Shown here piece after piece: positions 19,990 through 38,378 of a stretch of DNA of 64,000 bases. Both the position numbers and the translations under genes were made by a program. The stretch is taken from contig DATJVR010000034.1 in assembly GCA_035501735.1 (NCBI GenBank), positions 7,638 through 71,637 on the forward strand, written 5' to 3'. This DNA comes from Xanthobacteraceae bacterium (lineage in GTDB: Bacteria; Pseudomonadota; Alphaproteobacteria; Rhizobiales; Xanthobacteraceae). A model generated the notes under the pieces. That model did not search any database. It saw only the letters and a list, made by a program, of their open reading frames with translations, and had not been told where the DNA came from. Each line of letters starts with the position of its first letter. Position 1 is the first letter of the stretch.

Positions 19990-20091
19990 CGGCCTGTTCC
20001 GTGGTTTAAGCAGAATTCCCAATTCCTAACCGAAATTGCGGTTACTGCACTTGATGATTCAATTAAATGACGGGATTTGCGTTTCGCTGCT

Positions 20092-20105
20092 TTGAGGGAG
20101 ATCAA
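20092..20105 (-). promoter_or_regulatory. FNR/FixK-type box TTGAGGGAGATCAA upstream of the P1B ATPase gene
   Basis: 9/10 match to TTGAT-N4-ATCAA, centred about 76 nt (TTG start) or 110 nt (ATG start) upstream of the ORF. Confidence 0.55.
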
Positions 20106-20209
20106 TTCAATATTGGCTCAAGCCGCCAGGTCATGAGCGCGCCTCGCTGAGCCGGTGAATCGCCAGGGGCTAATTGCGAAAATCAAACGCCAAACTACTC
20201 TGCGCCAAA

Positions 20210-20527
20210 CTATCTTGACAAAGATTTTATATAAGCCGCCAGGTCGGTTGCTTCTGCCCGCGTCAGTGACATGTCCGGCATCTTCGGATGCGGAGAGAGC
20301 AGGAAAAATGCCAACTGCTCTGCATTGAAACCGGGGCGGCGTGCAACGGTCGCAAATGGGGCGGCTTCACTTGTCGGGCGACGCTGGTTGGGCGCCACGA
20401 CGTGACAGTCCGCACACCATCGGTGGGCTATCTGTTCGCCATGCCTGGCATCGGCTGCCCACCCCGAGGACTCCGTCAGCACCATTTGTGCGATGAAACA
20501 GAAAGCGACGATCGGGATCTTTTTCAT
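20210..20527 (-). CDS. monoheme class I c-type cytochrome, secreted
   Basis: MKKIPIVAFCFIAQMVL signal peptide, a single CADCH heme motif and a distal Met (HPKMPDM). Confidence 0.75.
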   Translation of the reverse strand: MKKIPIVAFCFIAQMVLTESSGWAADARHGEQIAHRWCADCHVVAPNQRRPTSEAAPFATVARRPGFNAEQLAFFLLSPHPKMPDMSLTRAEATDLAAYIKSLSR

Positions 20528-20589
20528 ATTTGCTTCGTCAATCTTTGTTGGGCGCTGCGGTCGAGGGAGACCGTCGCGGAAGGGGGTCG

Positions 20590-22689
20590 TCATTCATAGC
20601 GCAGCGCTTCGATGGGGTCGAGACGGGCCGCCTTGCGTGCAGGATAGTACCCGAAAAAGATACCGACTGCGGCGGAAAATAAGAACCCGCCCGCAATCGC
20701 CATCGTGGAAATCGGCGTAGGCCATCCAGCGGCGAGCGAGATTGTCTTGGAAAGCGCTATCCCGATTATGATGCCGGCTATTCCTCCGGCTACGCTCAGG
20801 AACACCGCTTCGGCCAGGAACTGCAGCAAGACGTGAAGCCTACGGGCGCCAATCGCCATGCGCAGACCGATCTCGCGTGTGCGCTCTGTCACTGAAACCA
20901 GCAAGATATTCATGATGCCGATGCCGCCGACGACAAGCGAAATGGAAGCAACCGCGGCCAACAAAAGTGCCATGATCTTGCTGCTACTCTCCGCGGTCTC
21001 GGCGATTTGGCTTAAGTTGCGGACTGAGAAGTCGTTTGCGTCGCCCGGCCGAATGCGATGTCGACGCGCCAGAATCTCCGTCGCTTGACCGATGGCTGTC
21101 TGTATTTGGTCAGGACTCGTTGCCTGGACATAAATCTGGTTCACAAAGCCGAGCAATCGACGCTGTAGATTATAAGGATTGGGCGGCTCTGGATAAACCC
21201 AATTGATCGGGACCTGTTGTTGGCTGGGCGCAGCGACGCCGAGGACTTTGCGCTCCGCCGTCGAAAACGGGACCATGATGACGTCGTCCTGGTCCGTCCC
21301 AAACGGGGTTTGCCCCTTTGAGCCGAGGAGACCAATAACGCGCAACGGCACGCTCCTGACCTGGATCACGGCGCCGATCGGGTTTTCGCTCGTGCCGAAC
21401 AACTGACGTGCGACAGTCTGGCCAAGGACCACAACCAATCCGGCATCGCTATCGTCTTCCGCCAAAATCCCGCGTCCTTCGGCGATCTGCCAATTGGTGA
21501 TCGGAGGGTAATTTGCGCTTACGCCTTGAATACTCGTTGTCCAATTTTGATTGGCGTATAGGACTTGGCCGGACTGGCGAATGAGATAACTGACGCTACC
21601 GACGGCCGATGCTTCACGCCGGAGCGCCTCGGCATCGGCGAGCGTGAGCGTGGAAGCACTTCCCAATCCGCCGCGCGCGCCGCCCATCGTGGTGGTGCCG
21701 GGCACAACGACCAGCAAGTTCGTTCCAAGACTTTCGATTTGCTTGCGCACTGCCTCATTGGCACCCTGGCCGACGGCAACCATCGCGATCAGCGCTGCAA
21801 CGCCAATAAAAACACCCAACATCGTGAGCATCGAGCGCATCTTATTGCGCATGAGCGCCTGCACGGCCGCGCCAGCAATCATCATCACAAAGGCTCCGAT
21901 TGCTCCACGCCGAATGACGGAAGCCGCTGTTTGGGAAGATGGCGCCACGGTCGCACGCTCAGTCTCGGATATGCGCACTTGTTCTGGTTTGCGCTTTTGT
22001 ACATCGGATATGATCTCGCCATCCCGCATGGTGATCACGCGATCGGCGTAATCCGCGATATCCGCCTCGTGGGTAACGACAACAATTGTGACACCGCGAT
22101 CGCGATTCAGCGACCGAAGCGTATTCATTATCTCATGCGAATTTCGCGTATCGAGGTTTCCGGTCGGCTCGTCGGCAAGCAAAACGCTCGGGTTGTTGAT
22201 GAGCGCGCGCGCGATGGCGACGCGCTGCTGTTCGCCGCCCGACAGTTGCCCAGGCGTATTACGTTCGCGTCCGGTCAGACCGAGCAGGGCCAAAGCCGAA
22301 CGCGCTCGTTCAACGCGCGTCGCTCGATCCACCGAATCGGAAACGGAATAAAATAGCGGCAAGGCGGTATTTTCGATCGCACTGGTGCGAGCAAGCAAAT
22401 TGAAACTTTGAAACACGAAGCCCAGGCGCTCGCTGCGGATACGCGCGAGTTGAGGCTCGCTCAACCGCGCAACGTCAATGCCTTCGAAATAATAATCGCC
22501 GCTGCTTGGCCGATCGAGGCAGCCGAGAGTGGCCATCAAAGTCGATTTTCCCGATCCGGACGAACCCATGATGGCTACAAATTCGCCGCGCTCGACAACG
22601 AGGCTTACGCCGCGCAGCGCGTTCACGTCCACTTCGCCAAGATGATAGGTCCGGGTGACCTTATCGACCCTGATGATTGGCTCAGCCAT
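20590..22689 (-). CDS. macB: MacB-type fused ABC ATPase/FtsX-like permease exporter
   Basis: Walker A GSSGSGKST, LSGGEQQRVAIARAL, then a large periplasmic domain and four TM helices. The ATG at 22689 has a GAGG SD. Confidence 0.8.
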   Translation of the reverse strand: MAEPIIRVDKVTRTYHLGEVDVNALRGVSLVVERGEFVAIMGSSGSGKSTLMATLGCLDRPSSGDYYFEGIDVARLSEPQLARIRSERLGFVFQSFNLLARTSAIENTALPLFYSVSDSVDRATRVERARSALALLGLTGRERNTPGQLSGGEQQRVAIARALINNPSVLLADEPTGNLDTRNSHEIMNTLRSLNRDRGVTIVVVTHEADIADYADRVITMRDGEIISDVQKRKPEQVRISETERATVAPSSQTAASVIRRGAIGAFVMMIAGAAVQALMRNKMRSMLTMLGVFIGVAALIAMVAVGQGANEAVRKQIESLGTNLLVVVPGTTTMGGARGGLGSASTLTLADAEALRREASAVGSVSYLIRQSGQVLYANQNWTTSIQGVSANYPPITNWQIAEGRGILAEDDSDAGLVVVLGQTVARQLFGTSENPIGAVIQVRSVPLRVIGLLGSKGQTPFGTDQDDVIMVPFSTAERKVLGVAAPSQQQVPINWVYPEPPNPYNLQRRLLGFVNQIYVQATSPDQIQTAIGQATEILARRHRIRPGDANDFSVRNLSQIAETAESSSKIMALLLAAVASISLVVGGIGIMNILLVSVTERTREIGLRMAIGARRLHVLLQFLAEAVFLSVAGGIAGIIIGIALSKTISLAAGWPTPISTMAIAGGFLFSAAVGIFFGYYPARKAARLDPIEALRYE

Positions 22690-22724
22690 AATTGCCTCGT
22701 TCTGAAGCACGCTCAGCGTAAGCT

Positions 22725-23978
22725 TTAGAACCGTAGTCGCAGTGTCGTGGTCCGGCTTGTAACGTTCTGCTCGGCGGTGATGACACGATCGTTCGGTTTG
22801 ACCGCTCCGCTCACGATTTCAGTGAACAAATCGTCGTCAAGGCCGGTGATAACGGGAACGACAATCGTCTTTCCGTCACGCAGAACCCAAATTTGAGCTT
22901 GGTCTTCCGGCGCGCCTTTGACAGTACCGCTCGGCGTGTAACGCAAGGCTGCATTGGGAACGCGCAAGACGTCAGAACGCTGATCGACGACAATACGCGT
23001 GGCCGCGGTCATGCCGGGCTTCAGGGTAAGGTCCGTATTGCTGACGCTGATCACAACATCATAGGTGACGACGTTCTGCACGGTCTGCGGCGATTGACGG
23101 ACTTGTGTGACGGTGCCCTTGAATGCGCGTTTCGGGAACGCATCCACCGTAAACGTGGATTCATTGCCGATCTTGACGCCGCCGATGTCGCCTTCAGATA
23201 CGTTCGTGTCGACTTCCATCTTGGTCAGATCAGTCGCGATGAGAAACAATGTCGGCGTCTGGAAACTCGCCGCGACCGTCTGCCCCTGCGTCACACTGCG
23301 AGAGACGACGATTCCATCTACTGGAGAGACAATATTTGTGTAATCGAGATTAACTTGCGCTGCATCAAGGGCTGCCTGGCGCTGGTCGATTGTGGCTTCG
23401 TCGAATATGACTTGCGCTTGCGCCTGTTCGTAATTGCTTTTAGCGCTATCGACAGCATCCTGAGAAACCGCATTTGTCTGGATGAGGCGAGTGGCCCGTT
23501 CGTAGCTGATTTTGGTGTAGCCGAGATTGGCTTTGTCTTTTTCGAGTTGCGCCTTTGCCACTGCCAGATTTGCTTTGGCTTGATCGACAGCACTTTGGTA
23601 TGGCCGCGGGTCGATTTTGGCGCAGACTTGGCCCTTCTTTACCTCCGTATTGTAGTCGCAATAAAGATCTTGAATGACGCCGGATACGTACGTGCCCACG
23701 ATGATCGTGAGCTCGGGGTTGACGGTGCCAGTGGCAGTGACCGTGCGAGTGATTGCGCCGCGCGTTACAGCTACGGTGGTGTATCGAACCGTGTTGCTCG
23801 GTGCGACAATCCACCAAATGATGGCAACCGTCAGGACGAGCAGCGCAGCCAACCCCCCGATCAGCCAATAGTTGCTGAACACCCGCCCGGCGGTTTGTTT
23901 GGCTTTCGCCGATGGAAACGGGACCAACTGTGGACGGTTCTCAGGCTTGGGCGGTCGCGGTGCGAGTTGCTCGTTCAT
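22725..23978 (-). CDS. macA: HlyD/MacA-type periplasmic adaptor (membrane fusion) protein
   Basis: N-terminal TM anchor, a coiled-coil hairpin region (AKANLAVAKAQLEKDKANL), and beta-barrel/MP domains. Confidence 0.8.
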   Translation of the reverse strand: MNEQLAPRPPKPENRPQLVPFPSAKAKQTAGRVFSNYWLIGGLAALLVLTVAIIWWIVAPSNTVRYTTVAVTRGAITRTVTATGTVNPELTIIVGTYVSGVIQDLYCDYNTEVKKGQVCAKIDPRPYQSAVDQAKANLAVAKAQLEKDKANLGYTKISYERATRLIQTNAVSQDAVDSAKSNYEQAQAQVIFDEATIDQRQAALDAAQVNLDYTNIVSPVDGIVVSRSVTQGQTVAASFQTPTLFLIATDLTKMEVDTNVSEGDIGGVKIGNESTFTVDAFPKRAFKGTVTQVRQSPQTVQNVVTYDVVISVSNTDLTLKPGMTAATRIVVDQRSDVLRVPNAALRYTPSGTVKGAPEDQAQIWVLRDGKTIVVPVITGLDDDLFTEIVSGAVKPNDRVITAEQNVTSRTTTLRLRF

Positions 23979-24049
23979 CGAATGCTTTCCTGCGAGTTTA
24001 GGCTGCTGCAAATTCTGCAGTAAAATCTCGCGAAACACTTGCTAACGCT

Positions 24050-24063
24050 TTGATCTGCATCAA
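24050..24063. promoter_or_regulatory. perfect FNR/FixK box TTGATCTGCATCAA in the macA / NUDIX divergent intergenic region
   Basis: 10/10 match. The centre is 78 nt from both the macA ATG (23978) and the NUDIX ATG (24135). Confidence 0.65.
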
Positions 24064-24134
24064 TCTCTCGACCAAGCATGACCATGAATGGATTGCCGTT
24101 CTGAGCCGGCTTAGGTTCAAGATCGGAGAGCCGG

Positions 24135-24608
24135 ATGCCGAAACGAAGTGCAGGAATATTGCTGTACCAACACAGGTCGGATGGCATCGAAGTCTTGTTG
24201 GTGCACCCTGGTGGACCCTATTGGGCCAGGAAAGATGTCGGCGCGTGGTCGATCCCCAAGGGTGAGATTGGCGAGGGTGAAGATGCGCTCACGGCTGCGC
24301 GACGCGAATTTCAGGAAGAGACCGGAACGGCCGTTGAGGGCGATGCCATTTCGCTCGGCGAGGCGCGTCAAAAAAGCGGAAAAATCATCTGCGCCTTTGC
24401 GATCGAGGGCAATCTCAAGGCCGATGCACTTGTTTCAAATAGGTTTGAGATGGAGTGGCCTCCGCGCAGCGGACGCCGGGCAAGCTTTCCGGAGGTCGAT
24501 CGCGCGGAGTGGTTTTCGCCGGATGCCGCGATGAAGAAGATCACTAGCAGTCAAAAGGTGTTCGTCGAGCGCTTGCTGACAACCCTCTCATCAGGTTCAT
24601 CGCGATAG
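24135..24608 (+). CDS. NUDIX hydrolase
   Basis: GEIGEGEDALTAARREFQEETG matches the Nudix box GX5EX7REUXEEXGU. Confidence 0.8.
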   Translation: MPKRSAGILLYQHRSDGIEVLLVHPGGPYWARKDVGAWSIPKGEIGEGEDALTAARREFQEETGTAVEGDAISLGEARQKSGKIICAFAIEGNLKADALVSNRFEMEWPPRSGRRASFPEVDRAEWFSPDAAMKKITSSQKVFVERLLTTLSSGSSR

Positions 24609-24637
24609 CCGCCGTGGAAAGTCAACGATGGACTGCG

Positions 24638-25000
24638 TTACGTGGTCAGGCTCGCCCCACCATTCGAAAACAGCTCAGCGCCGACTTGCATGATCCTCCT
24701 GTTCTGATCGAGCAATTGACGGGCATCTTCGGCGTTGAGCTGCATCTGCTGTTGCATACATTCCTGCCACGCAGACGCAGCTTCTGGAATGGAACGCGCT
24801 GAGGCGAGCTTGCCCGCCAAATCCGTAGCCAGTTTTGACTCCGACTGCGCTCGCGTCGTCCAGACTTGGTTCAGTTCGGCCGCATATTCCAGGACCTGTT
24901 TCTGCAGGTCGATCATTGCGTCGATCATTGGTGCAGGATGAATGCTCCAATTCTTGTATTTATCCTTCTTTGCGTGTTCACCCGATTGAGACTGAGTCAT
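24638..25000 (-). CDS. phasin-like PHA granule-associated protein
   Basis: Small helical Ala/Gln/Glu-rich protein next to phaC. The motif SARSIPEAASAWQECMQQQMQLNAEDARQLL resembles rhizobial phasins. The ATG at 25000 has a GGAGGA SD. Confidence 0.55.
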   Translation of the reverse strand: MTQSQSGEHAKKDKYKNWSIHPAPMIDAMIDLQKQVLEYAAELNQVWTTRAQSESKLATDLAGKLASARSIPEAASAWQECMQQQMQLNAEDARQLLDQNRRIMQVGAELFSNGGASLTT

Positions 25001-25103
25001 GACATCCTCCGCAATGTTCAACTCCGCTCACAGGAAATGCATCCACCATCAACAATGACAATTCCCGCCTAACATTGTCTACAAGGTGTTATGGCAGTTC
25101 GTT

Positions 25104-25117
25104 TTGATTTGAATCAA
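25104..25117 (-). promoter_or_regulatory. perfect FNR/FixK box TTGATTTGAATCAA upstream of the phasin-like gene
   Basis: 10/10 match in the 109-nt gap between the phaC stop and the phasin start. Confidence 0.65.
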
Positions 25118-25130
25118 CCACTCCCGAATC

Positions 25131-26993
25131 TTACTCCTGAAGCACGTAAGTTCCCGGCGCATCGCACAACGGCTTATAGCCGGCCTGCGGGGCACCAAGC
25201 CCGCTTGGGGCCATTGGCGCCCCCGAGCGCGCATCGAGCCAAGCGACCCATTCCGGCCACCAGGAGCCATCTTTCTGTGGCGCATTTGCCAAAAAAGCTT
25301 CCGGGTCAAGATAGTGATTGTCGGGCTTTTTCGTCATCGCTTGGAAACTGCGACCCACGTGGCCGGGCTCTGACACGATGCCAACATTGTGCCCGCCCGT
25401 GGTGAGCAGATATGTCACCTCCGTGTCGGTCTGAAGGTTGATCTTATAGGTCGAGCGCCATGGCGCGACATGATCGCGCATAGTGCCAACAGCGAAGATG
25501 GGCACTCGTATGTCCGAGAGCGCGATCGGTTTTTCTCCGACCAGAAACCTCCCTTCCGCAAGATCGTTGTCGAGAAAGAGTTTCCGTAGGTATTCCGAGT
25601 GCATGCGGTAAGGCATGCGCGTGGCATCGGCGTTCCACGCCATCAGATCGCTCATCGGCTGGCGTTCACCCATCAAATACTCGTGGACACCACGCGACCA
25701 GACGAGATCGTTCGAATGCAACATCTGGAACGTGCCGGCCATTTGCCGGCTGTCAAGAAAACCCTGCTCCCACATCATGTCTTCGAGAAAGGCAAGCTGA
25801 CTTTCATTGATGAAAAGCATCAACTCGCCGGCCTCCGTGAAATCGGTCTGCGAGGCAAACAATGTGACTGTCTTCATCCGGTCGTCGTCTTCGCGCGCCA
25901 TTGCGGCCGCCGCAATCGCAAGCAGTGTTCCACCGAGGCAATAGCCGACAGCATGCACCTTTTCATCGGGGACAATGCTGTTTATGGCTTCGAGCGCGGC
26001 CATGATGCCGAGTGTCCGATAGTCGTCCAAGCCGAGGTCGCGCTCCTCCGGACCGGGGTTCCTCCACGACATCATGAAAACCGAGTATCCCTGCTCGGTG
26101 AGATATTTCACGAGCGAATTCTGCGGCGAGAGATCGAGAATGTAGTATTTCATGATCCAGGCAGGAACGATGAGGATGGGTTCCGGCCGAACCTTTTCGG
26201 TCGCAGGTTCATACTGGATCAATTCAATGAGGCGGTTGCGATAAACCACTTTTCCCGGCGTGATCGCGACGTCGCGTCCGACGACGAATTTTTCGCTGCC
26301 GACCGGTTTTTTGCCGCTGATCGCGCGTTCCCAATCCTCCATCAGGTTTTGGAATCCGTTGACCAGATTCATTCCGCCCTTTTTGATGGTTTGCCGAAGA
26401 ACTTTGGGATTCGTGAGCACGAAATTCGACGGCGCCACCATGTCGAGGATTTGCCGCGACGCGAACTCGACCATGTTTTCGTGCTGTTTGGAGAGGCCGC
26501 GGATGCCGGTCGTGGCGTTGTGCCACCATTGCTGCTGCAGCAAGAAGGCTTGATGGATAAAGTTGTACGGCCATTTCTGCCATTCGTCGTCGGCGAAACG
26601 CTTATCAAATGGCAGCGGCTCGATGCAGCATTCGGTTTTACCACCCTGCATCACGCAGCGGCAGGCATAATTCGTGAAGCGAACCGCCTTGCGAACCGCC
26701 TTGTCCACCAATTGAACGCGTTTGCCCGGTGCGAAGGCAAGGTGGGTTGCCCAATCCAAATAGGCATGAGCCAACGCGGCCGGCGACACGCCGGCCGAAA
26801 ACCTGGCGAGCGCGGCATGCAGCGAGCGATCAGTAATGTCGGCAAACGCGGTAACAGCGTAGGAATCGCGAATGTCAGTCTGAGTGCCGGCGACCGCAGG
26901 CTCCCCGCCTTTGGAACGAAACAACGCAGGTGCAGATGCCTCCGAGGGTCTATCCCTCGTGCGACGAATCGAATGAAGTGCTGGTACGCTCAT
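25131..26993 (-). CDS. phaC: class I poly(3-hydroxyalkanoate) synthase
   Basis: 620 aa, with the lipase-like box GYCLGGT, PILIVPAWIMKYYILDL and a conserved C-terminal Asp/His region. Confidence 0.9.
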   Translation of the reverse strand: MSVPALHSIRRTRDRPSEASAPALFRSKGGEPAVAGTQTDIRDSYAVTAFADITDRSLHAALARFSAGVSPAALAHAYLDWATHLAFAPGKRVQLVDKAVRKAVRFTNYACRCVMQGGKTECCIEPLPFDKRFADDEWQKWPYNFIHQAFLLQQQWWHNATTGIRGLSKQHENMVEFASRQILDMVAPSNFVLTNPKVLRQTIKKGGMNLVNGFQNLMEDWERAISGKKPVGSEKFVVGRDVAITPGKVVYRNRLIELIQYEPATEKVRPEPILIVPAWIMKYYILDLSPQNSLVKYLTEQGYSVFMMSWRNPGPEERDLGLDDYRTLGIMAALEAINSIVPDEKVHAVGYCLGGTLLAIAAAAMAREDDDRMKTVTLFASQTDFTEAGELMLFINESQLAFLEDMMWEQGFLDSRQMAGTFQMLHSNDLVWSRGVHEYLMGERQPMSDLMAWNADATRMPYRMHSEYLRKLFLDNDLAEGRFLVGEKPIALSDIRVPIFAVGTMRDHVAPWRSTYKINLQTDTEVTYLLTTGGHNVGIVSEPGHVGRSFQAMTKKPDNHYLDPEAFLANAPQKDGSWWPEWVAWLDARSGAPMAPSGLGAPQAGYKPLCDAPGTYVLQE

Positions 26994-27014
26994 CGTTCAT
27001 TCTATGATGGTTAT

Positions 27015-27035
27015 GCCGGCGCGATCAGCGCCGGC
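27015..27035 (-). other. GC-rich hairpin GCCGGCGC-GATCA-GCGCCGGC between the secreted-protein gene and phaC
   Basis: Perfect 8-bp stem. No U-tract follows, so it is not a convincing intrinsic terminator. Confidence 0.3.
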
Positions 27036-27053
27036 CTATACGCTCTTAGATGG

Positions 27054-27500
27054 TTATTTCAGCCAGATTTCCAACCCACTCAAATCGATGGTTGCTTCAA
27101 GCCCGATCTGTCTGCCGCGGAGCCGCAGGACAACGCCTCTAGAATTTCTAAGCCTTGCGTATTTTTTACCTCCGGCAATGGCCAGTCCGGCTTCGCCGGC
27201 GGTATACGTCCCCGCCAAGTCCGAGACATTGTATAAATTATAGACCCGTCCAATAAGCTCGGTCTTGGCCAATCCAATCGTGGCGCCCAGGCTTAGGCCT
27301 CCGATGCCAAGCGGATATTCTCGACCCTGATAGAAGAGCGTGCCGTTTCCGCCGGCCGCGCCGATAATGAGGCCTCCGCTGACAATTTCGATACGAATCG
27401 TGCCGGATGGCGGCGCTTGCGAAAACGACGGCGAAGCAAACGAAACGAGCGCAATCATGCTGACAACGAAAAGGCGAAATGCAGAAAAATAGCGTGACAT
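27054..27500 (-). CDS. secreted Gly-rich protein of unrecognised family
   Basis: Signal peptide MSRYFSAFRLFVVSMIALVSFASPSFS. The mature part consists of G/A/I/L-rich beta-like repeats. GGAGGAAG SD. Confidence 0.6.
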   Translation of the reverse strand: MSRYFSAFRLFVVSMIALVSFASPSFSQAPPSGTIRIEIVSGGLIIGAAGGNGTLFYQGREYPLGIGGLSLGATIGLAKTELIGRVYNLYNVSDLAGTYTAGEAGLAIAGGKKYARLRNSRGVVLRLRGRQIGLEATIDLSGLEIWLK

Positions 27501-27550
27501 GTCTTCCTCCGGTTTCCCAATTAAATTAATCGCTACAACGCGGGTTGCTA

Positions 27551-27564
27551 TTGATTCAGATCAA
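27551..27564 (-). promoter_or_regulatory. perfect FNR/FixK box TTGATTCAGATCAA upstream of 27054..27500
   Basis: 10/10 match, centred 57 nt upstream of the ATG. Confidence 0.65.
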
Positions 27565-27623
27565 ACCGCAATTGTTACTTTCGCAAGGCGCGTGCCGAGG
27601 GTGCCTCAACGCGCGCGCAAGCG

Positions 27624-30161
27624 TCATCGGACGTTCGATGAGGTGCGCGTCGCAAATGCCTTGGTGCTCTCCGCGGCGGCGAGATAAAACAATACCAATA
27701 GTATCACCATACCAAATATTGAAGTCGGCAGGCTGACAAATCCGAAATCAAAGCCGACCGGACTCATGACGATCGCGACGGCAGCGGCGAGCGCCGCAAA
27801 GGAACTCAGGACCAGGAATGGATGGGCTCGGCTGGTCCAGAAACGATTGTGTGTACGAATCAAGAAAATCACCAAGATCTGCGTTGCCATTGATTCGATG
27901 AACCACGCGGTGCGAAACGTTTCGGGATCCGCATGGAATATGCGCAGCAGGATTCCGAAGGTCGCGAAATCGAAGACTGAGGATAACGCACCCATGATCA
28001 CGGTGAAACGAAGTATTTCGGCCATATTCCAAGCCTGGGGGCGAGAAAGGTCGCGTTCGTCGACCTGGTCGAATGGAATTCCGATTTCTGAAAAATCATA
28101 GAGCAGATTGTTGAGGAGAATCTGAACGGGCAACAGCGGCAGGAATGGCAGCACCAGCGAAGCCAATGCCATCGACAGCATGTTACCGAAGTTGGAACTC
28201 GTTCCCATGCGGACGTATTTGAGGATATTTGCGAATGTGCGCCTGCCTTCGTCGACGCCGTCGGCGAGAACGCCCAGGTCCGGCGCAAGCATGATCATGT
28301 CGGCTGCGCCGCGTGCAACATCGGTCGCGCCTTCGACGGATAGGCCGACCTCGGCGGCTCGGATGGCCGGAGCGTCATTTACGCCGTCGCCGATAAAACC
28401 GACCGTGTGACCGTGTACCTGAAGCGCGCGGATGATGCGGGTCTTCTGATCGGGCGTCACGCGCGCAAATAGATTGATTTCTTCCACCCGCGCCGCAAGC
28501 GCCGGGTCCGTCAGATCAGCGATTTCGGCCCCGGTGAGTACGTCTCCAGCAGGGATTTTGAGCATATTCACGACATGGCGAACGACGGCTTCGTGGTCGC
28601 CGGAGATGACCATCACGCGCACGCCGGCGGCATTCAGGCGGGCGATGGCAGAGGCTGCGCTGGCTTTCGGCGGGTCGACGAAGACGGAAAATCCGGCAAA
28701 GACCAGATTATTTTCGTCTTCGATTTGAATTTCCCGGCAATCCTTCGGCATCGATTTCCAGGCCACGGCCAAAACCCGGTTGCCGAGAGCGGCCTGATCG
28801 GCCTGCATTCGCTCAAGTGCAGTGCGATCCGCGATGCCCAAAGGTTTTGCCAACCCTTCGCCATCATCAAGCGCGCTCGATCGCATCAGCACCGATTCCG
28901 GAGCGCCTTTAATTATCAGAATTCGCTCGCCTGCGCGCTCGGCGAGAACGGACACACTCCGGCGCACGAAATCAAAAGGTATCTCGTCAATCTTTTTCCA
29001 TTCGTCAAATCGTCGGTCAATGCAATGGTCGATGATCGCTTGATCAAGCGGGCTGCGTATACCGCTGCCAAAGCAGCTATTCACGGCAGCGAGCAGGAGG
29101 ACGCGCTCGCTGTCTGTTCCATCCGGGCCCGGATGGCCGACAAGGCTTATTCGCGCCTCAGTCAACGTTCCCGTTTTATCGGTGCACAGGACGTCCATGG
29201 CTCCAAGATCATGGATCGCGGCAAGGCGCTTCACGACGACGGATTTGGTGGCCAGACGCAATGCTCCACGCGACAACGTCACGGTCATGATCATCGGCAA
29301 TAGTTCGGGTGTCAGTCCAACCGCCAGTGCGACTGCGAATAAAAACGAATCGAGAACCGGCCGACCGAAGGCGAGATGCACGAGCAGGACGAAGAGCACC
29401 AAGAAAAGGGTCAGTCTTAAAATCAGCAGTCCAAGCCGATGGATACCGCGCTCGAAAGCGCTCGGGACTTCGTTTGAGGCCAGCGCCGCCGCGATACCGC
29501 CAAAGCGGGTTGAGCCGCCTGTGGTAACGACGAGCATGGTTGCTTCGCCAGTAACAATCGAAGTGCCTGCGAACAGGGCGTTAGAGGCATCTGCGGGAAG
29601 TTTGGCGTCGCACTGACCCGCGCGTTTTTCCGTAGGGAACGGTTCGCCCGTCATCAAGGCTTCGTTAGCATGCGCGTCGCGGCTCTTGATGACCACACCA
29701 TCGGCAGGAACGAGATCGCCAGCCCTCAATTCAACCACATCGCCGGGCACAACCTGTTCGACGGGAATAGATACAATTTTGCCATCGCGATAAACGTCGG
29801 AATGAATTGCCACCGATCGTTTTAATGCATCGGCTGCGACCTCCGCCCGGTGCTCCTGCACCACGTCCAGAATGATCGATAGCGCAATGACAGTCAGGAT
29901 GATGACGAAGCTGGTGAGGTCTCCGGTGAATCCTGCGATTGCCGCAGCCACCAGCAAAATCGCGACCAGCGGTTCTGCAAACCGTTTCGCAATTTTAAGC
30001 GCAATGCGCCGGTGAGGAAGGTCTGCGACCGCGTTTGGTCCATAACGCGCCAGTCGTTTTGCCGACTCCTCCGTCGTCAAACCGGCAGCGCTGCAGGACA
30101 GGCGCTCGAACAGCGAAGCAATGGAGCTTTGCCAAAATTGTTCGGTTGAGGTGTCAGACAT
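27624..30161 (-). CDS. mgtA: magnesium-translocating P-type ATPase (MgtA type)
   Basis: Contains CTDKTGTLT, GDGVNDAPA, RRTFANILKYVRMGTSSNFGN and NLLYDFSEIGIPFDQVD. It aligns along its length with E. coli MgtA as remembered. Confidence 0.85.
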   Translation of the reverse strand: MSDTSTEQFWQSSIASLFERLSCSAAGLTTEESAKRLARYGPNAVADLPHRRIALKIAKRFAEPLVAILLVAAAIAGFTGDLTSFVIILTVIALSIILDVVQEHRAEVAADALKRSVAIHSDVYRDGKIVSIPVEQVVPGDVVELRAGDLVPADGVVIKSRDAHANEALMTGEPFPTEKRAGQCDAKLPADASNALFAGTSIVTGEATMLVVTTGGSTRFGGIAAALASNEVPSAFERGIHRLGLLILRLTLFLVLFVLLVHLAFGRPVLDSFLFAVALAVGLTPELLPMIMTVTLSRGALRLATKSVVVKRLAAIHDLGAMDVLCTDKTGTLTEARISLVGHPGPDGTDSERVLLLAAVNSCFGSGIRSPLDQAIIDHCIDRRFDEWKKIDEIPFDFVRRSVSVLAERAGERILIIKGAPESVLMRSSALDDGEGLAKPLGIADRTALERMQADQAALGNRVLAVAWKSMPKDCREIQIEDENNLVFAGFSVFVDPPKASAASAIARLNAAGVRVMVISGDHEAVVRHVVNMLKIPAGDVLTGAEIADLTDPALAARVEEINLFARVTPDQKTRIIRALQVHGHTVGFIGDGVNDAPAIRAAEVGLSVEGATDVARGAADMIMLAPDLGVLADGVDEGRRTFANILKYVRMGTSSNFGNMLSMALASLVLPFLPLLPVQILLNNLLYDFSEIGIPFDQVDERDLSRPQAWNMAEILRFTVIMGALSSVFDFATFGILLRIFHADPETFRTAWFIESMATQILVIFLIRTHNRFWTSRAHPFLVLSSFAALAAAVAIVMSPVGFDFGFVSLPTSIFGMVILLVLFYLAAAESTKAFATRTSSNVR

Positions 30162-30317
30162 GGCCAGGGCAATTCAACGATAGGCTATTAGATCCGGATT
30201 GGAAATTGCCCGCACGACATCTCAGCGAATCATAGAGCCTTTATGCACTGGCCGGAGGAACCGCGTATCTAACGACCGTCCCCCGCTGCAAGATCGACAA
30301 TCACGACTTCGTTTTCG

Positions 30318-31829
30318 TCACACGTAACCGAGCCAGCGCCAATATGTTGCGCCCAAAGCCATAACGAGAACGAACGCGATCAGCGTCAGGACCAAGCCGG
30401 TGCGCACGAAATCGCGCGCCTCGAACGTCTCGGTTCCATAGGCCACCATGTTCTGCGGCGCGTTCACCACAAGGATGAACCCGAAACTGACCACGAACTG
30501 CAACAGCATGGTCATGCCGACGATGTTAATTCCGGGCGTGCCGACACCCTGCAGGACCGCGATCACAATCGGTATCATTGCCGAGGCGAGCGCTGTTGCG
30601 CTCGCAAAGCCGAGATGGATGACGATCAAGAACAGGCTCATCGTGGCGAGAATGAACAAGGCTGTTGCCTGCTTCAGGCCGAATTCCGCCACGACGATAT
30701 CGGCGAGCCATACCGCTCCCTTGGTCTGCAACAATGCCGTGCCGAGGCTGATGCCTATTCCAAACAGCACAACCGTACCCCATGGAATTTTCGGCTGAGC
30801 GTCTTTCCAGGTCATGATGCCAATGCCGGGTAAAAACATGAGTGCGACCGCCGTAATGGTGGTCGTGCTGGTGTCAAATGTGTGGAGAACGCCTTCAGTC
30901 GCCCAGAATCCCAGTAGCGTGAGCGAGATCGCGAGAAGTTTCATTTCGGACGCCTTCATGCGGCCGAGGTCGGCGAGCGCTTTACGGATCGCCTCGCGCC
31001 CGCCGGGAAATTGCCTCAACTCGGGGGGCATCATGCGTGTCATCACGAAATAAAGGGCGAACGACATCAGGATTGCGAATGGCGCCGCTGCAATCAGCCA
31101 TTCGAGCCATGTGATCGTCCGGCCGAAGGCCTTCTCGATGAAACCGATAGCGACCATATTTTGGGCTGCTGCGGTCTTGATCCCGACGTTCCAGATACTT
31201 GCGGTCTGCACCGTCGTGATCATCAACGTTGCGGCGAACGCGCTTTTCTTGCTGACGCCAAATGCGGCGATGATGCCGAGCGTAATGGGGACCAGGCAGG
31301 CGACACGCGCGGTGGTAGACGGCACCAAGAAGGCGATCACAAACCCGACCAGAATAGTTCCAATCACGACATTCCGGGTCTCGGTGCCGACACGCGAAAG
31401 AATGCTGAGCGCGATCCGGCGGTCGAGACCGGTTGTGGTCATTGCCGCCGAGAGAAACAAAGCCGAAGCAACCAACACCAGCGCCGTATTGGCAAACCCG
31501 CTGAAGGCCAGCGTGAGCGCAGCGCTGGTTCCCATGAGTGCTTTGGGATTTGCCGGGTTGGGCGAAAATCCCAGCAGGAACGCCATCAATGCGGCAATGA
31601 CGATGGCTGAAACCGCGTAATCAAGCGATTCGGTCATCCAGACAATGACGGCGAATGCCAAAATTGCGAGCATGCGATGGCCCGCAATCGGCAATCCTGC
31701 GGGCGTCGGAATCAGGAGTACGGCCGTAAGCGCCGCGATCGCGAGCAGGAGTCCCCAATTTCGGCCGATCCAACTTGATTGCTTGGTTGGCGACACGGCT
31801 GCCGCCGATGATTGCTCTGCAATGGCCAT
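30318..31829 (-). CDS. DASS/SLC13-family anion (di/tricarboxylate or sulfate type) transporter
   Basis: Polytopic membrane protein of about 500 aa with internal repeat topology and hairpin-like motifs typical of the ArsB/NhaD-DASS superfamily. The ATG at 31829 has a GGAGGAAG SD. Confidence 0.7.
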   Translation of the reverse strand: MAIAEQSSAAAVSPTKQSSWIGRNWGLLLAIAALTAVLLIPTPAGLPIAGHRMLAILAFAVIVWMTESLDYAVSAIVIAALMAFLLGFSPNPANPKALMGTSAALTLAFSGFANTALVLVASALFLSAAMTTTGLDRRIALSILSRVGTETRNVVIGTILVGFVIAFLVPSTTARVACLVPITLGIIAAFGVSKKSAFAATLMITTVQTASIWNVGIKTAAAQNMVAIGFIEKAFGRTITWLEWLIAAAPFAILMSFALYFVMTRMMPPELRQFPGGREAIRKALADLGRMKASEMKLLAISLTLLGFWATEGVLHTFDTSTTTITAVALMFLPGIGIMTWKDAQPKIPWGTVVLFGIGISLGTALLQTKGAVWLADIVVAEFGLKQATALFILATMSLFLIVIHLGFASATALASAMIPIVIAVLQGVGTPGINIVGMTMLLQFVVSFGFILVVNAPQNMVAYGTETFEARDFVRTGLVLTLIAFVLVMALGATYWRWLGYV

Positions 31830-31892
31830 AGCTTCCTCCGAACGCACAAATCAGTATTTGCGATAAAATCGTTTGGACACGGCAAGTTCGCT

Positions 31893-31906
31893 TTGAGACA
31901 GATCAA
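31893..31906 (-). promoter_or_regulatory. FNR/FixK-type box TTGAGACAGATCAA upstream of the DASS transporter gene
   Basis: 9/10 match, centred 70 nt upstream of the ATG at 31829. Confidence 0.55.
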
Positions 31907-31990
31907 ATCTGTCTTTGGAAACGTATCGAGCGCTTCGACACCTATGAGTGAGCGAAGTGTCTGTCTATGGCAGTATCGCATGCTGATGTC

Positions 31991-32034
31991 GGAAAATGAA
32001 AAGCGCGTTCCGCGAGTGGTCACGGAACGCGCTT
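31991..32034 (-). terminator. Rho-independent terminator (minus strand)
   Basis: Perfect 12-bp stem AAGCGCGTTCCG/CGGAACGCGCTT with a 10-nt loop, followed on the minus strand by TTCATTTTCC. Confidence 0.65.
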
Positions 32035-32114
32035 CCTTCCGCTCCATCAGGCAGCCGTTTTGACTTCTATTTTCTTCACCTGAGCGGTAGCGGGCTTCGG
32101 CACCGTCACCCTTA
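31991..32114 (-). ncRNA. candidate FixK-dependent short transcript (box at 32149..32162 to terminator at 31991..32034)
   Basis: A perfect FixK box lies 7 nt after the CBS-BON stop. TTCAAT is at -10 distance, and the terminator lies about 120 nt downstream. No credible ORF lies between them. Confidence 0.25.
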
Positions 32115-32148
32115 AAAAATATTGAAAGCGACTGACGGGCTGCCGGCA

Positions 32149-32162
32149 TTGATGTGAATCAA
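32149..32162 (-). promoter_or_regulatory. perfect FNR/FixK box TTGATGTGAATCAA immediately downstream of the CBS-BON gene
   Basis: 10/10 match. On the minus strand it is followed by the shared motif ATATTTTTTAA. Confidence 0.55.
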
Positions 32163-32168
32163 TCGGAT

Positions 32169-32864
32169 CTAGGCCACCATGCCCGACATCGGTTCGACCC
32201 AGACCAATTCGTCCACGACGTTTTTCACGCCGGGGATATTTTCAGCCGCAACGCGCAACGCGTCGCGTTCCCGCGGGTCAGTTACCGCGCCTGAGAGCGT
32301 CACGACGCCATCCCTGACGAATACGTCAATCAATGCGACGGGTGCCCACGGCTGCTTCTTCAACTCAGCAAGCAAGCTTTCGCGGATCGCCTTGTCTCCC
32401 TGGGAAACGGGTTTTACGTCACGTGACACGTTGAGCAAGGCGCGGACCAGATTTGCGCGCGTGATGATGCCGACGACTCGCTTCTCACGCATGACGGGAA
32501 CCCGCTTGACATGACGCCGTTCCATCAAACGCACGACTTCCTCCAGCGAGGCATCCTCGGAAACCGTGTAGACATCCGAAGTCATGATCTCGTTTACGTT
32601 CCGCCCGCTGTTATGGACATATTCATCGGCGAGCTTTCCCGGTCCGGCAAGAAATTCGATCCAGCGAGTGCGATGGCGCTTCGTTCCGATTTCCGCCCGG
32701 CGCAAAAAGTCACCCTCGGTGACAATGCCCACAAGATTGCCGGCTGCGTCGATCACGGGCAGCCCGCTGATATGCTTCAGCAGCATCAACCGAGCGGCAT
32801 GCAAAATCGAGGAATCCGGCGTCACGGAAACAACGTCAGGGGTCATCACATCGCTGGCTTTCAT
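32169..32864 (-). CDS. CBS-pair plus BON domain protein
   Basis: Two CBS motifs (DVMTPDVVSV..., GLPVIDAAGNLVGIVTEGDFLRR; IMTSDVYTV..., RVPVMREKRVVGIITRANL) and a C-terminal BON domain (VRDGVVTLSGAVTDPRERDALRVAAENIPGVKNV). The ATG at 32864 has an AGGAG SD. Confidence 0.85.
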   Translation of the reverse strand: MKASDVMTPDVVSVTPDSSILHAARLMLLKHISGLPVIDAAGNLVGIVTEGDFLRRAEIGTKRHRTRWIEFLAGPGKLADEYVHNSGRNVNEIMTSDVYTVSEDASLEEVVRLMERRHVKRVPVMREKRVVGIITRANLVRALLNVSRDVKPVSQGDKAIRESLLAELKKQPWAPVALIDVFVRDGVVTLSGAVTDPRERDALRVAAENIPGVKNVVDELVWVEPMSGMVA

Positions 32865-32960
32865 GGCAGTGCTCCTATTCATTGCGATTGAATACTAGCC
32901 AAGAACGGGGCCACTCAATTGAGCCACATCAAAAACGACATCAGTCGCAGCGCTACGGAT

Positions 32961-32997
32961 GACAAAATAAATGGCCCCGGAGGGACTCCGGGGCCAT
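32961..32997 (-). terminator. Rho-independent terminator (minus strand)
   Basis: Perfect 12-bp stem ATGGCCCCGGAG/CTCCGGGGCCAT with a 3-nt loop, followed on the minus strand by TTATTTTGTC. Confidence 0.65.
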
Positions 32998-33032
32998 GGC
33001 TGCCGAGTTGATGGGAAGAGGGGAGTGCTCGA
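32961..33032 (-). ncRNA. candidate FixK-dependent small RNA with C/U-rich single-stranded stretch
   Basis: A perfect FixK box sits at 33067..33080, and TATTTT/CATATT is at -10 distance. The predicted RNA of about 70-80 nt contains CACUCCCCUCUUCCC followed by the terminator hairpin. Confidence 0.3.
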
Positions 33033-33066
33033 CTATTAAAAAATATGCCCCGTTTGAGGTGAGGCC

Positions 33067-33080
33067 TTGATCTAAATCAA
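33067..33080 (-). promoter_or_regulatory. perfect FNR/FixK box TTGATCTAAATCAA
   Basis: 10/10 match. It lies between the stop of 33193..33840 and the terminator at 32961..32997. Confidence 0.6.
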
Positions 33081-33192
33081 ATGCCTCCCTCCGGCTCGTC
33101 GTGTGGCGCCGGCGCAGGCCCGGTCAAGAGCACGGTTAACGCAATTCCACCGACGACCCGCAGATACGCCTGCATTTTGTACGGAAATCGGC

Positions 33193-33840
33193 CTACCGCG
33201 CGCCCGGCATGCCGCTGCGATCCGGCCTGTTTCCCATCGGGCCGCCGTGCCTATGCATGCCCTGGTCGTGCATCATCCCGTTCCTCATCATTGCTGTTTG
33301 CACCGCCAGCATGCCGTCGCGCACGAGATCGCTGACTTCCGACGCATGTTGTTGGAGCGCGACCACCGTCTCCTGATCGTTCGATGTCTGGGTTACGATC
33401 ACGCCCTTTTCGATTGTTTCAGCTGCCGTTTTGATCTTGTCCTTGTTCCGGAATATCATGTGCAAAGCTTGGCTCTCGATCGGCAAACCGGGGTCGCGTT
33501 GGGTATTTACTCGTTCTCCCATGCCGGCGACGTGCTCCTTGATGAACAGAGCGATGCGCGGATCATCCGATTCCGTAACAGTTCGGATGCCGTCTGGCAG
33601 GTTGGTCACAGTGCGTCTGATGAGATCGTGGTTGATGATCAATTCATGGATGATGTCCATTTCTGACTTCGTCGCAGAATTGATGCCGGCACCCATCATG
33701 CCGTGACCCATGCCATGCATGAACATCATGCCGAAGCCGTGGCCGCGTTCCTGAGAGGAGGCCTTGAACGCATATGAGCCGACTGCAATTGCCAGAACAA
33801 TCGCGATTGCGATGCCGATCCGTTTGTTGCGCGGGTTCAT
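33193..33840 (-). CDS. periplasmic protein with Met/His-rich tracts at both ends (putative Cu(I)/soft-metal binding)
   Basis: Signal/anchor IGIAIAIVLAIAVGSYAF. The N-terminal tract is GHGFGMMFMHGMGHGMMGAG and the C-terminal tract is MMRNGMMHDQGMHRHGGPMG. The central domain of about 130 aa is not recognised. Confidence 0.6.
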   Translation of the reverse strand: MNPRNKRIGIAIAIVLAIAVGSYAFKASSQERGHGFGMMFMHGMGHGMMGAGINSATKSEMDIIHELIINHDLIRRTVTNLPDGIRTVTESDDPRIALFIKEHVAGMGERVNTQRDPGLPIESQALHMIFRNKDKIKTAAETIEKGVIVTQTSNDQETVVALQQHASEVSDLVRDGMLAVQTAMMRNGMMHDQGMHRHGGPMGNRPDRSGMPGAR

Positions 33841-33942
33841 TGAAAAATCCTTTGCTATCCCTGTGGCAGGCCGTCTCTCGTTCAGAGAACCGCTGCAAAT
33901 GATACGTGCCCTTGAATATCAGTTATGCCAAACGATCATCGT

Positions 33943-34563
33943 TCACGTATGATCATGATCATACAGGCGTTTGAGGAGGCGGATTTTCCCTCCCTTGTTT
34001 CGTTGGATTTCGGCATCCTTCTGCATTTTCGCCAACGTCCGATAGAGCGCTTCGTGGGTCAGTCCGAGATGAGCGGCGAATTCCTTGAGCGAACCGGGCA
34101 GCACGACGCTCCGCGCGTCCGGACCGAGATTGACAGCAAAGTAATGACGAATGCGATCGCGGGCGGAATGGATGTTGCGCTGTTCGAGGCGTGTCCGCAG
34201 ATCCATGATTTGGCGAGCGAGCATGGCCATAAAAGCCTCAGCCGCCTTCGGATTGCGCTTGAACTCAACCAATATCGCGGCCTTCGGATAGAATCGAACC
34301 ACCGTTTTCGTGGTCGCAATCGCATCACAGTGATAGGTCGGCGAGAACAAAGAAGCTTCGGCGATCGTCTCACCGACAGAGGCCGAATGAAGAATGGCCT
34401 CGCGCCCTGAACGATCCACCCGTACCAGCCGCACTTTCCCGCTGATGACCTCGTACAGGCCAACGGTTCGACTGCCCTGTCGGAACAAGGTCTCGCCAGC
34501 CTCGAGGGGACGCTCAACGCCAGCACTCCGTACCACGGTGGGCAGCCAGTCTCGTTCGCTCAC
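33943..34563 (-). CDS. Crp/Fnr-family transcription regulator without an N-terminal Cys cluster
   Basis: cNMP-binding-like beta-roll (GETLFRQGSRTVGLYEVISGKVRL) and C-terminal HTH LKEFAAHLGLTHEALYRTLAKM, with the E and R of the FNR/FixK recognition helix conserved. GTG start. Confidence 0.8.
   Translation of the reverse strand: MSERDWLPTVVRSAGVERPLEAGETLFRQGSRTVGLYEVISGKVRLVRVDRSGREAILHSASVGETIAEASLFSPTYHCDAIATTKTVVRFYPKAAILVEFKRNPKAAEAFMAMLARQIMDLRTRLEQRNIHSARDRIRHYFAVNLGPDARSVVLPGSLKEFAAHLGLTHEALYRTLAKMQKDAEIQRNKGGKIRLLKRLYDHDHT
33947..33964. repeat. perfect 18-bp palindrome GTATGATCATGATCATAC
   Basis: Self-complementary. It overlaps the last codons (YDHDHT) of the Crp/Fnr gene, 107-124 nt upstream of the Met/His-rich protein gene. 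Confidence 0.3.
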
Positions 34564-34687
34564 AACCCAGTTCCTTGCGGGAGTTTAAGTAATAAGATTA
34601 GGTTCAAATTGAGCCTCGTGTTTGGCCTCAATCGCCGAAATCCAAGTCGGTTGCTGTTGTTGCTCCTCCAGGGATGCCTTGCGCGCG

Positions 34688-35986: not shown

Positions 35987-36107
35987 ACGGTCTTATCCGG
36001 TTCCGTAATGGCCTAGGATGATGGTTGGCGGACGTCCCGACCGACACCCAGCTACTGATAGGCCTCTCCGTAATCCAATATGTGAATTCCAAAACAGCCG
36101 TCGATAC

Positions 36108-36587: not shown

Positions 36588-36625
36588 TCGAAAACCGGCC
36601 TTTGCGGACTGGCGGCTGGTCAGGT

Positions 36626-37186: not shown

Positions 37187-37310
37187 GCTCGGCCTCAAGA
37201 AACTGGTGCAACAAAGCAGTCGATGCAATGTAGCAGATTGTCATTGCGTGGGCCAGAACGAAGGAAGCTTAAGCGCAGATTGTGCTGCCGCTGACGAGCG
37301 GTTTTTCGAC

Positions 37311-38186: not shown

Positions 38187-38378
38187 GACAATGAGTGGCG
38201 TGCAATCGACACGGAGGATTTACTCTGTGCAGGTATCCGTAAGATTACGAGGGATCGGTATCCTTCCCCGTTGAATCGACGTAAGTTAGCAGTACACTTG
38301 AAAGTGGCAACCATCGATGGAGGTGCGGTTGATTCGAGGTCGCCATGACAGGCGTTTTGCATCTTTAGGAATACCACG

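Follow-up and report, generated by a model that had tools for sequence, protein, structure and literature searches.

The DNA analyzed here, which we call the window, is a stretch of 64,000 nucleotides from a Xanthobacteraceae bacterium (GenBank assembly GCA_035501735.1, contig DATJVR010000034.1, positions 7,638 to 71,637). It is 100% identical to soil metagenome contigs (e.g., JGI Ga0335081_10000376), and its nearest named relatives by protein identity are metagenome-assembled genomes (MAGs) of Hyphomicrobiales, including Pseudolabrys, Rhodoplanes, and Bradyrhizobiaceae. An earlier sequence-only reading of the window had described a dense array of FNR/FixK-type boxes as a micro-oxic regulon island. 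We mapped the genes by scanning against Pfam and NCBIfam and by drawing on the gene calls of identical metagenome contigs, and we compared the boxes, the genes behind them, and a candidate small RNA with related loci, which are designated by L numbers.

Distribution of the boxes

Five perfect TTGAT-N4-ATCAA boxes are present in the window, at 24050, 25104, 27551, 32149, and 33067, exactly where they had been reported. Dinucleotide-preserving shuffles contained 0.10 such boxes on average and none of 100 shuffles reached five; the earlier chance estimate of 0.06 was about right. When one mismatch was allowed, 11 matches were found against 2.0 expected. These include the 9/10 boxes at 20092, 31893, and 59329, which were likewise already known, and a further 9/10 box at 32919, upstream of a gene for a CBS-BON protein. 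The previous count of eight boxes was therefore correct for the sites it listed but overlooked this ninth. The two other one-mismatch matches lie within coding DNA (30616 in the gene for a DASS transporter and 60617 in ccoN), which is the number that chance predicts. Under the looser anaerobox definition, TTGA-N6-TCAA, the window holds nine matches against 0.92 expected, and all nine are located between genes, in agreement with the claim that the boxes are intergenic. Eight of the nine fall within 13 kb (20.1 to 33.1 kb), and the other 51 kb of the window contains one, upstream of ccoN. In the island the density is 0.62 boxes per kb; across 1.7 Mb of related loci, themselves centered on a likely target gene, it is 0.117. 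The excess of FNR/FixK-type sites is real, and the observation of a box array is confirmed.

Genes associated with the boxes

The leftmost box, TTGAGGGAGATCAA (9/10; 20092-20105), is centered 76.5 nt upstream of the start of a gene for a P1B-5-like heavy-metal ATPase (17701-20022, minus strand), with a -10-like element, CATTTAAT, at class II spacing. The protein matches Pfam E1-E2_ATPase and Hydrolase, carries a C-terminal Hemerythrin domain at residues 638 to 767, and scores 498.8 bits against NCBIfam TIGR01525 (cutoff, 346), as expected of a P1B-5 ATPase.

The next box is perfect (24050-24063) and lies 78.5 nt from two divergent starts. On its left is a likely macA-macB-cytochrome c operon (20210-23978, minus strand), consisting of macA (22725-23978, with the start at 23978 taken from a called gene of 417 aa), macB (20590-22710), and a small cytochrome c gene (20210-20593), with Pfam matches to HlyD_D23, MacB_PCD, ABC_tran, FtsX, and Cytochrome_CBB3. 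On its right is a gene for a NUDIX hydrolase (24135-24608, plus strand; Pfam NUDIX). The box had been proposed to be shared by macAB and the NUDIX gene. In the related contig L079 the box is identical and the 78.5-nt distance to macA is kept, but the distance to the NUDIX gene collapses to 17.5 nt after a deletion of 57 to 61 nt. A -10-like element, GATTTTAC, was found solely on the macA side, and the NUDIX side is without one. These observations suggest that box 24050 serves macA and that the NUDIX gene is probably not a target, so that one half of the proposed sharing stands and the other does not.

A perfect box at 25104-25117, directly after the phaC stop codon, is positioned 110.5 nt upstream of a phasin gene (24638-25000, minus strand; 120 aa; Pfam Phasin_2) and is identical in L079 at the same distance from the phasin gene. 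The polyhydroxybutyrate (PHB) synthase gene phaC itself (25131-26924, minus strand; Pfam PhaC_N and PHBC_N) has no box of its own in the window. It is preceded by a gene for a Gly-rich exported EipA-like protein (27054-27500, minus strand; a weak Pfam EipA match and a signal peptide), and 57.5 nt upstream of this gene is the perfect box 27551-27564, with a -10-like TAATTT; the box is identical in L079 at -57. The hairpin between the EipA-like gene and phaC is without a U-tract, and the two genes possibly form one transcript.

Further to the right, box TTGAGACAGATCAA (9/10; 31893-31906) is found 70.5 nt upstream of a gene for a DASS anion symporter (30318-31829, minus strand; Pfam Na_sulph_symp and NCBIfam TIGR00785). 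Behind this gene lies mgtA, for an MgtA-type Mg2+ P-type ATPase (27624-30161, minus strand; 791 bits against NCBIfam TIGR01524, cutoff 610.75), and no terminator-like site was seen in the 156-nt gap between the two. Box TTGAGCCACATCAA (9/10; 32919-32932) is 61.5 nt upstream of the gene for a 231-aa CBS-CBS-BON protein (32169-32864, minus strand; two Pfam CBS matches and BON), the start of which, at 32864, has a GGAG ribosome-binding site. Outside the island, box TTGACCTAGATCAA (9/10; 59329-59342) precedes by 84.5 nt the ccoN start of ccoNO(Q)P, which encodes a cbb3-type high-affinity oxidase (59420-62868, plus strand; Pfam COX1, FixO, FixP_N, and Cytochrome_CBB3). The boxes had been described as lying at promoter-like distances from protein genes; this does not hold for 32149, behind which an hsp20 gene has been deleted, or for 33067, which precedes a short RNA, as neither serves a protein gene.

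Conservation and promoter layout of the boxes

Contig L079 is 93.5% identical to the window over 22099-39424, an overlap that takes in seven of the boxes and leaves box 20092 outside its coverage. All seven are unchanged (98 of 98 nt). The other intergenic DNA in the overlap (1,518 positions) is 82% identical with gaps included and 89% identical without gapped positions, and from these identities the chance of no change in the seven boxes was calculated to be about 3e-9 to 1e-5. Because the boxes are unchanged while the remaining intergenic DNA diverges, they appear to be under purifying selection.

We also observed boxes at matching positions before homologous genes in more distant loci. A box precedes 11 of 14 ccoN homologues, at -69 to -86; all four DASS homologues, at -65 to -70, with another instance in L164; and five of six hsp20 homologues, at about -80. 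Among 154 CBS-BON homologues, 60 have a box within 300 nt upstream, versus about 5 by chance, and these boxes are mostly at -59 to -63. No box was found before any of six MgtA homologues or either of two P1B ATPase homologues in other loci. In L007, a MAG locus labelled Pseudolabrys, the CBS-BON, hsp20, and LTXXQ homologues are each boxed and lie directly beside genes for a fixL-like kinase and a FixK-like protein, and a further box stands before ccoN. Locus L164 brings together genes for a MacB-type pump, cytochrome c, CBS-BON, Hsp20, DASS, and PhaC, with five boxes in 3.5 kb, beside a Crp-family gene. In three other loci (L113, L099, and L086), two boxes stand 55 to 66 nt apart upstream of the CBS-BON gene, leaving no room for an RNA gene; such pairs may represent promoters in a tandem or divergent arrangement, of the sort known from rlv_1399 and fnrN.

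A/T-rich, -10-like hexamers occur 22 to 30 nt beyond the box, on the gene side, in 9 of 10 box-to-target pairings. This spacing fits the requirement of a class II Crp/Fnr promoter and so supports the reading of the boxes as promoter elements. Selection, orthologous positions, and promoter layout thus all point to the boxes functioning as regulatory sites. Together with published FixK2 clusters, they bear out the proposal that FNR/FixK-type sites are clustered here as a regulon island, and we consider it likely that class II Crp/Fnr-type promoters, each built on a TTGA-N6-TCAA anaerobox and controlled by a low-oxygen regulator, are grouped in this part of the window.

In the model that we favor, a FixK-, FnrN-, or AadR-like dimer would bind each palindrome under low oxygen, centered near -41.5, and would recruit RNA polymerase by direct contact to activate transcription. 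Activation through direct contact with RNA polymerase is established for class II Crp/Fnr promoters. The nine boxes would then correspond to about eight live transcription units, namely, those of the P1B-5 ATPase, macAB with cytochrome c, phasin, the EipA-like protein (possibly with phaC), DASS (possibly with mgtA), CBS-BON, a small RNA of about 71 nt, and ccoNOQP, and to one fossil, the box of hsp20. We infer from sequence the binding of a FixK/FNR-type protein, the transcription start sites, and any role of the RNA in trans.

A candidate small RNA downstream of box 33067

The perfect box 33067-33080 is centered 40.5 nt upstream of the first base of an RNA hairpin, with a -10-like TATTTT at 33045-33040. 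The candidate small RNA (32962-33033, minus strand; about 71 nt) consists of a 5' hairpin followed by an intrinsic terminator and ends about 98 nt before the CBS-BON start. Hairpin 1 has a stem of 6 bp (GUCGAG/CUCGGC) and a 20-nt C-rich loop, CACUCCCCUCUUCCCAUCAA; the terminator has a 12-bp G+C-rich stem and a 3-nt loop and is followed by a U-tract. The predicted fold has an energy of -31 kcal/mol (z, -5.0). No conserved reading frame was found in the RNA, and an AUG inside the terminator is missing from L158.

Searching with a covariance model of the window, L079, and L078 copies gave matches in L164 (59.5 bits), L158 (35 bits), and L159 (22 bits) and weaker ones in L115, L005, and L093 that are all immediately upstream of a CBS-BON gene on the same strand. 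Eight of the RNA copies have a box, and in all eight the distance from box center to hairpin start is 40.5 or 41.5 nt, which corresponds to class II spacing. These eight copies fall into three unrelated hairpin sequence types and have differing genes upstream, and predicted RNA lengths are 71 to 86 nt. Alignment of all ten RNAs with MAFFT and RNAalifold recovered the terminator alone, as the subtypes are unalignable, and pair counts were limited to the six sequences that could be aligned. Among these, 91.5% of cells were paired, against 29 to 50% in slid controls, and in hairpin 1 the paired share was 97.5%; of the changes there, two were compensatory and two one-sided.

Two sets of matches lie in other contexts. 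The same module (box, 41.5 nt, C-rich-loop hairpin, and terminator; 84 nt) occurs at L160:12660-12785 (minus strand), between phaC and a PHB depolymerase gene and away from any CBS-BON gene, and a single genome may hold the module more than once or in different contexts. In loci labelled Pseudolabrys, the model gave tentative matches of 16 to 27 bits directly 3' of the fixK stop codon (L007:5745-5823, L119:3879-3957, L008:8161-8238, and L010:8156-8230), where a hairpin with a CCUCCCC loop is followed by a terminator. This element may simply be the fixK terminator, or it could represent a small RNA that derives from the 3' untranslated region of fixK.

At the gathering threshold, Rfam identified only one tRNA and one 5_ureB_sRNA match in the window. 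In permissive scans the best match to the candidate RNA was ar14 (RF02344), at 25.9 bits against a gathering threshold of 58.8, and the homologous elements in five related loci had no Rfam match. The cuckoo/alpha-r14/CcsR RNAs of Alphaproteobacteria are composed of two to four adjacent hairpins, each with CCUCCUCCC in its loop (PMC4615179). The candidate resembles the cuckoo/alpha-r14 RNAs in having a hairpin of variable stem with a C-rich, anti-Shine-Dalgarno-like loop and in hairpin and loop sizes within the ranges of that family (PMC4615179). However, it has one C-rich hairpin plus a terminator, and its loop motif is degenerate (CUCCCCUCUUCCC, GCCCGUCUCCCC, and UCCCUUGUACCC). Membership of that family was rejected on the two-to-four-hairpin definition and the subthreshold score.

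Box 33067 appears to drive a candidate FixK/FNR-activated small RNA. The RNA would start at the base of the hairpin and end at the strong intrinsic terminator just before the CBS-BON promoter, and base pairing with purine-rich ribosome-binding sites could take place through its exposed C-rich loop. Three observations weigh against this interpretation. When the loop was tested against 18 local translation-initiation regions, the best energy was -14.2 kcal/mol, no better than that of shuffled loops (mean best, -15.3). The loop is C-rich throughout, but its sequence drifts (it is changed in L078, L158, and L159). Finally, no box stands at the class II position before the RNA copies of L159 and L093.

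An alternative explanation is that the hairpin and terminator are only the 3' untranslated region and terminator of the upstream gene and that box 33067 is a distal site for the CBS-BON promoter, a roadblock, or the promoter of a leader or attenuator. We regard this as unlikely, although several features are in keeping with it: the element sits between the stop codon of the upstream Met/His-rich gene and the CBS-BON promoter, a weakly similar unboxed element follows fixK in the loci labelled Pseudolabrys, the L159 and L093 copies have no box at -41.5, and the paired boxes before CBS-BON in several relatives leave no room for the RNA. In contrast, the fixed spacing of 40.5 to 41.5 nt from box to hairpin is seen in eight loci with unrelated upstream genes and three hairpin sequences, whereas the distance between the two boxes varies (148, 152, and 155 nt). 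Moreover, the 12-bp G+C-rich stem and U-tract separate box 33067 from the CBS-BON gene, and the L160 module, between phaC and the PHB depolymerase gene, has no CBS-BON gene nearby.

With regard to the small-RNA interpretation, we judge the chances to be about even that these elements constitute an undescribed family of FixK/FNR-activated small RNAs (71 to 86 nt, with a C-rich-loop hairpin and a terminator) in soil Hyphomicrobiales, located mostly upstream of CBS-BON genes. A limited search of the literature and Rfam found no description of this RNA, which is not proof of novelty, and no FixK/FNR-dependent small RNA for Hyphomicrobiales was found in the literature searched.

An orphaned box at the site of a deleted hsp20 gene

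The perfect box 32149-32162 has no coding sequence beginning at promoter distance. Downstream of it, at 31990-32110 (minus strand), is an hsp20 remnant made up of the last 20 or so codons (32110-32047) and an intrinsic terminator with a U-tract (32034-32005). In DNA sequence the remnant matches the 3'-terminal part of the intact hsp20 genes of L006, L007, L009, and L091 with 75 to 81% identity, and its terminator likewise matches that of intact hsp20 genes in relatives; the remnant region folds with -56.2 kcal/mol (z, -5.4). A complete Hsp20 alpha-crystallin reading frame is absent, and the window contains no other hsp20 gene.

Intact hsp20 genes are found between the CBS-BON and DASS genes in L091 and L164, and the order CBS-BON, box, hsp20, terminator, box, DASS is seen in L007, L091, and L164. 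The body of hsp20 is deleted in both the window and L079, and the box is perfect in both. An indel distinguishes the window from L079 between box 32149 and the remnant, in a segment that aligns poorly; this suggests decay. From these alignments, box 32149 is best read as a promoter box orphaned by an internal deletion of hsp20, and the orphaned promoter may still yield a fossil transcript of about 120 nt.

Two other interpretations of this box were considered and dropped. Box 32149 was examined as a second small-RNA promoter, but the supposed RNA downstream aligned with the 3' ends of intact hsp20 genes. Paralogous promoters at 32149 and 33067, which share a downstream ATATTTTTTAA, were also considered; this element is not kept after box 32149 in L079.

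Regulator and signal

The one Crp/Fnr-family gene detected by scanning the window (33943-34563, minus strand; Pfam cNMP_binding and HTH_Crp_2) was previously placed in the middle of the array and described as lacking a Cys cluster. The gene exists, and its product has no Cys cluster for a [4Fe-4S] center of the FNR type, but it lies just outside the array. We considered this protein as a FixK and rejected it: it scores 47.2 bits against NCBIfam FixK (cutoff, 300), compared with 250.7 for the FixK-like protein of L007, with which it is 25% identical, and its recognition helix reads HEALYR instead of the IETVSR of FixK, without E-x-x-S-R. Since the sole local Crp/Fnr protein is not FixK-like, the regulator that reads the boxes is most likely encoded elsewhere in the genome. 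The Crp-like gene ends in codons (YDHDHT) that overlap a perfect 18-bp palindrome, GTATGATCATGATCATAC (33947-33964), situated some 107 nt upstream of the Met/His-rich gene start. This palindrome might be bound by the local regulator, or it might simply result from the coding sequence there.

The Met/His-rich gene (33193-33840, minus strand) encodes an exported protein, and both box 33067 and the candidate RNA lie in the 3' untranslated region of this gene. The protein has no Pfam or NCBIfam match, and a homologue was found only in L079. It carries Met/His-rich stretches near the N terminus (MMFMHGMGHGMMG) and the C terminus (MMRNGMMHDQGMHRHG) and looks like a periplasmic binding protein for a metal, perhaps copper.

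Several points count against a low-oxygen regulon of the extent proposed here. The source organism is uncultured, and the regulon was read from sequence alone. The motif is common to FixK, FnrN, AadR, and NO (nitric oxide)-sensing proteins of the NnrR/Dnr type, so that the signal could be one other than oxygen, and no FixK, FNR, or FixLJ gene is present in the window. In addition, the P1B ATPase gene has an imperfect box that finds no support in the comparison with homologues, and the links of phaC and mgtA to the regulon hang on unproven cotranscription.

The boxes might therefore be genuine Crp/Fnr sites that respond to a different signal, either NO through an NnrR/Dnr-type protein or the ligand of the local Crp-like protein; we hold this to be quite improbable. 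FnrN and FixK recognize nearly identical motifs, which the DNA sequence does not distinguish (PMC4999443). In the recognition helix of the local regulator (HEALYR), the Glu and Arg are retained, and DNR is among the best solved relatives of this protein. However, ccoNOQP, hsp20, CBS-domain, and phaC genes are classic low-oxygen targets of FixK2 and FnrN, and the same genes adjoin fixL and fixK in relatives. The local regulator also has a Tyr in place of the Ser of FixK/FNR, in addition to its low FixK score, and no box precedes it or its neighbors. That the array arose by chance or from repeats, such as copies of a mobile or repetitive element, and has no regulatory role is effectively refuted: although the island is compositionally distinct (G+C content of 0.55 to 0.58 versus 0.60 to 0.64 in the flanks), none of the 100 shuffles attained the observed counts, no extended similarity is seen among the sequences flanking the boxes, and the boxes are perfectly conserved amid diverging intergenic DNA and recur at the same distances before orthologues in distant relatives.

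For a low-oxygen regulator acting on the island, both oxygen dependence in the source organism and the identity of the regulator are inferred. The sequence-only reading had tied PHB storage, metal and Mg transport, efflux, and carboxylate uptake to oxygen limitation. The core of this reading, a cluster of FNR/FixK-type sites, is supported, but the NUDIX gene, a box belonging to mgtA, and the local regulator as FixK fall away. The Mg link would be retained only through possible cotranscription of mgtA with the DASS gene, and the P1B-5 ATPase perhaps belongs to the regulon.

Comparison with known systems

The FixK2 box of Bradyrhizobium diazoefficiens is a 14-bp TTGA/C-N6-T/GCAA (PMC9104804). 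FixK2-box units listed there include an efflux adaptor (bll4634), hspC2, phaC2 (bll6073), and a CBS protein (blr6074), in two clusters (PMC9104804 Table 2; PMC6515984). The clusters bll4634-blr4655 and bsr6066-blr6074 resemble the window in having several boxed units side by side, with a TTGA-N6-TCAA box 40 to 150 nt before start codons. The gene families common to both are those of the efflux adaptor, Hsp20, PHB synthase, and CBS-domain protein, and in both fixNOQP lies elsewhere. The window differs in that no fixLJ or fixK is in view, five of its nine boxes are perfect FNR-like TTGAT-N4-ATCAA sites, one box would drive an RNA, and one is orphaned; its DASS, P1B-5 ATPase, and EipA-like genes are not among the B. 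diazoefficiens table entries considered (PMC9104804). The island is a further example of the known FixK2-type regulon cluster.

In Rhizobium leguminosarum, rlv_1399 encodes an FnrN-dependent small heat shock protein with an anaerobox at -87.5 and microaerobic induction (PMC11784457). The anaerobox position, some 80 to 88 nt before the hsp20 start, is comparable to that in the relatives of the window, at about -80. In the window itself, in contrast, the gene is gone and the box, the last 20 or so codons, and the terminator are left. Nia of Sinorhizobium meliloti, a P1B-5 ATPase with a hemerythrin domain, is reported to be expressed in nodules (PMC9388753). The ATPase of the window shares the hemerythrin domain, but its box is imperfect and lacks comparative support.

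A different comparison concerns the candidate RNA. FnrS of Escherichia coli is an FNR-activated small RNA. The likeness between the two lies only in their proposed logic, a class II Crp/Fnr box followed by a short, terminator-ended RNA; they have no sequence or Rfam relationship and come from different branches of the phylum.

Flanking regions

The left 17 kb of the window contains housekeeping and polyphosphate genes. The segment 7105-16726, just left of the PHB genes, carries ppk, ppx, and genes for a CYTH-CHAD protein, a patatin-like lipase, and an SDR protein. Two storage-polymer systems, for polyphosphate and PHB, are thus adjacent; there are no boxes before the polyphosphate genes. To the right of the island, at 38379-40162 (plus strand), are genes for a NapC/NirT-type tetraheme cytochrome and a multiheme cytochrome c of about 390 aa, beside genes for a UbiA prenyltransferase and an SRPBCC protein, none of which is boxed. 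The G+C content is 0.55 to 0.58 over 20000-40000, against 0.60 to 0.64 on both sides, and this block takes in the island plus the multiheme cytochrome, UbiA, and MFS genes; it may have been acquired as a block. The 5_ureB_sRNA match (92 bits; 55778-56064, minus strand) lies in the urease region, upstream of ureF and ureG, and overlaps a plus-strand open reading frame of 570 aa (55623-57335). Rather than a Helicobacter-type antisense RNA, the match may represent urease coding sequence that is conserved on the other strand.

Implications

The island suggests that an uncultured soil or peat lineage of Hyphomicrobiales groups its low-oxygen genes much as Bradyrhizobium does, which in itself adds little. 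It does nominate members of the regulon: a phasin, a carboxylate/anion transporter of the DASS type, a MacAB pump accompanied by a cytochrome c, and possibly a P1B-5 ATPase. The perfectly kept site before the deleted hsp20 gene would be a clean example of regulon sites outliving their targets. If the RNA family is genuine, it would extend the low-oxygen regulon to the posttranscriptional level, by a logic like that of enterobacterial FnrS, and the small RNA would offer a testable entry into posttranscriptional control of micro-oxic metabolism.

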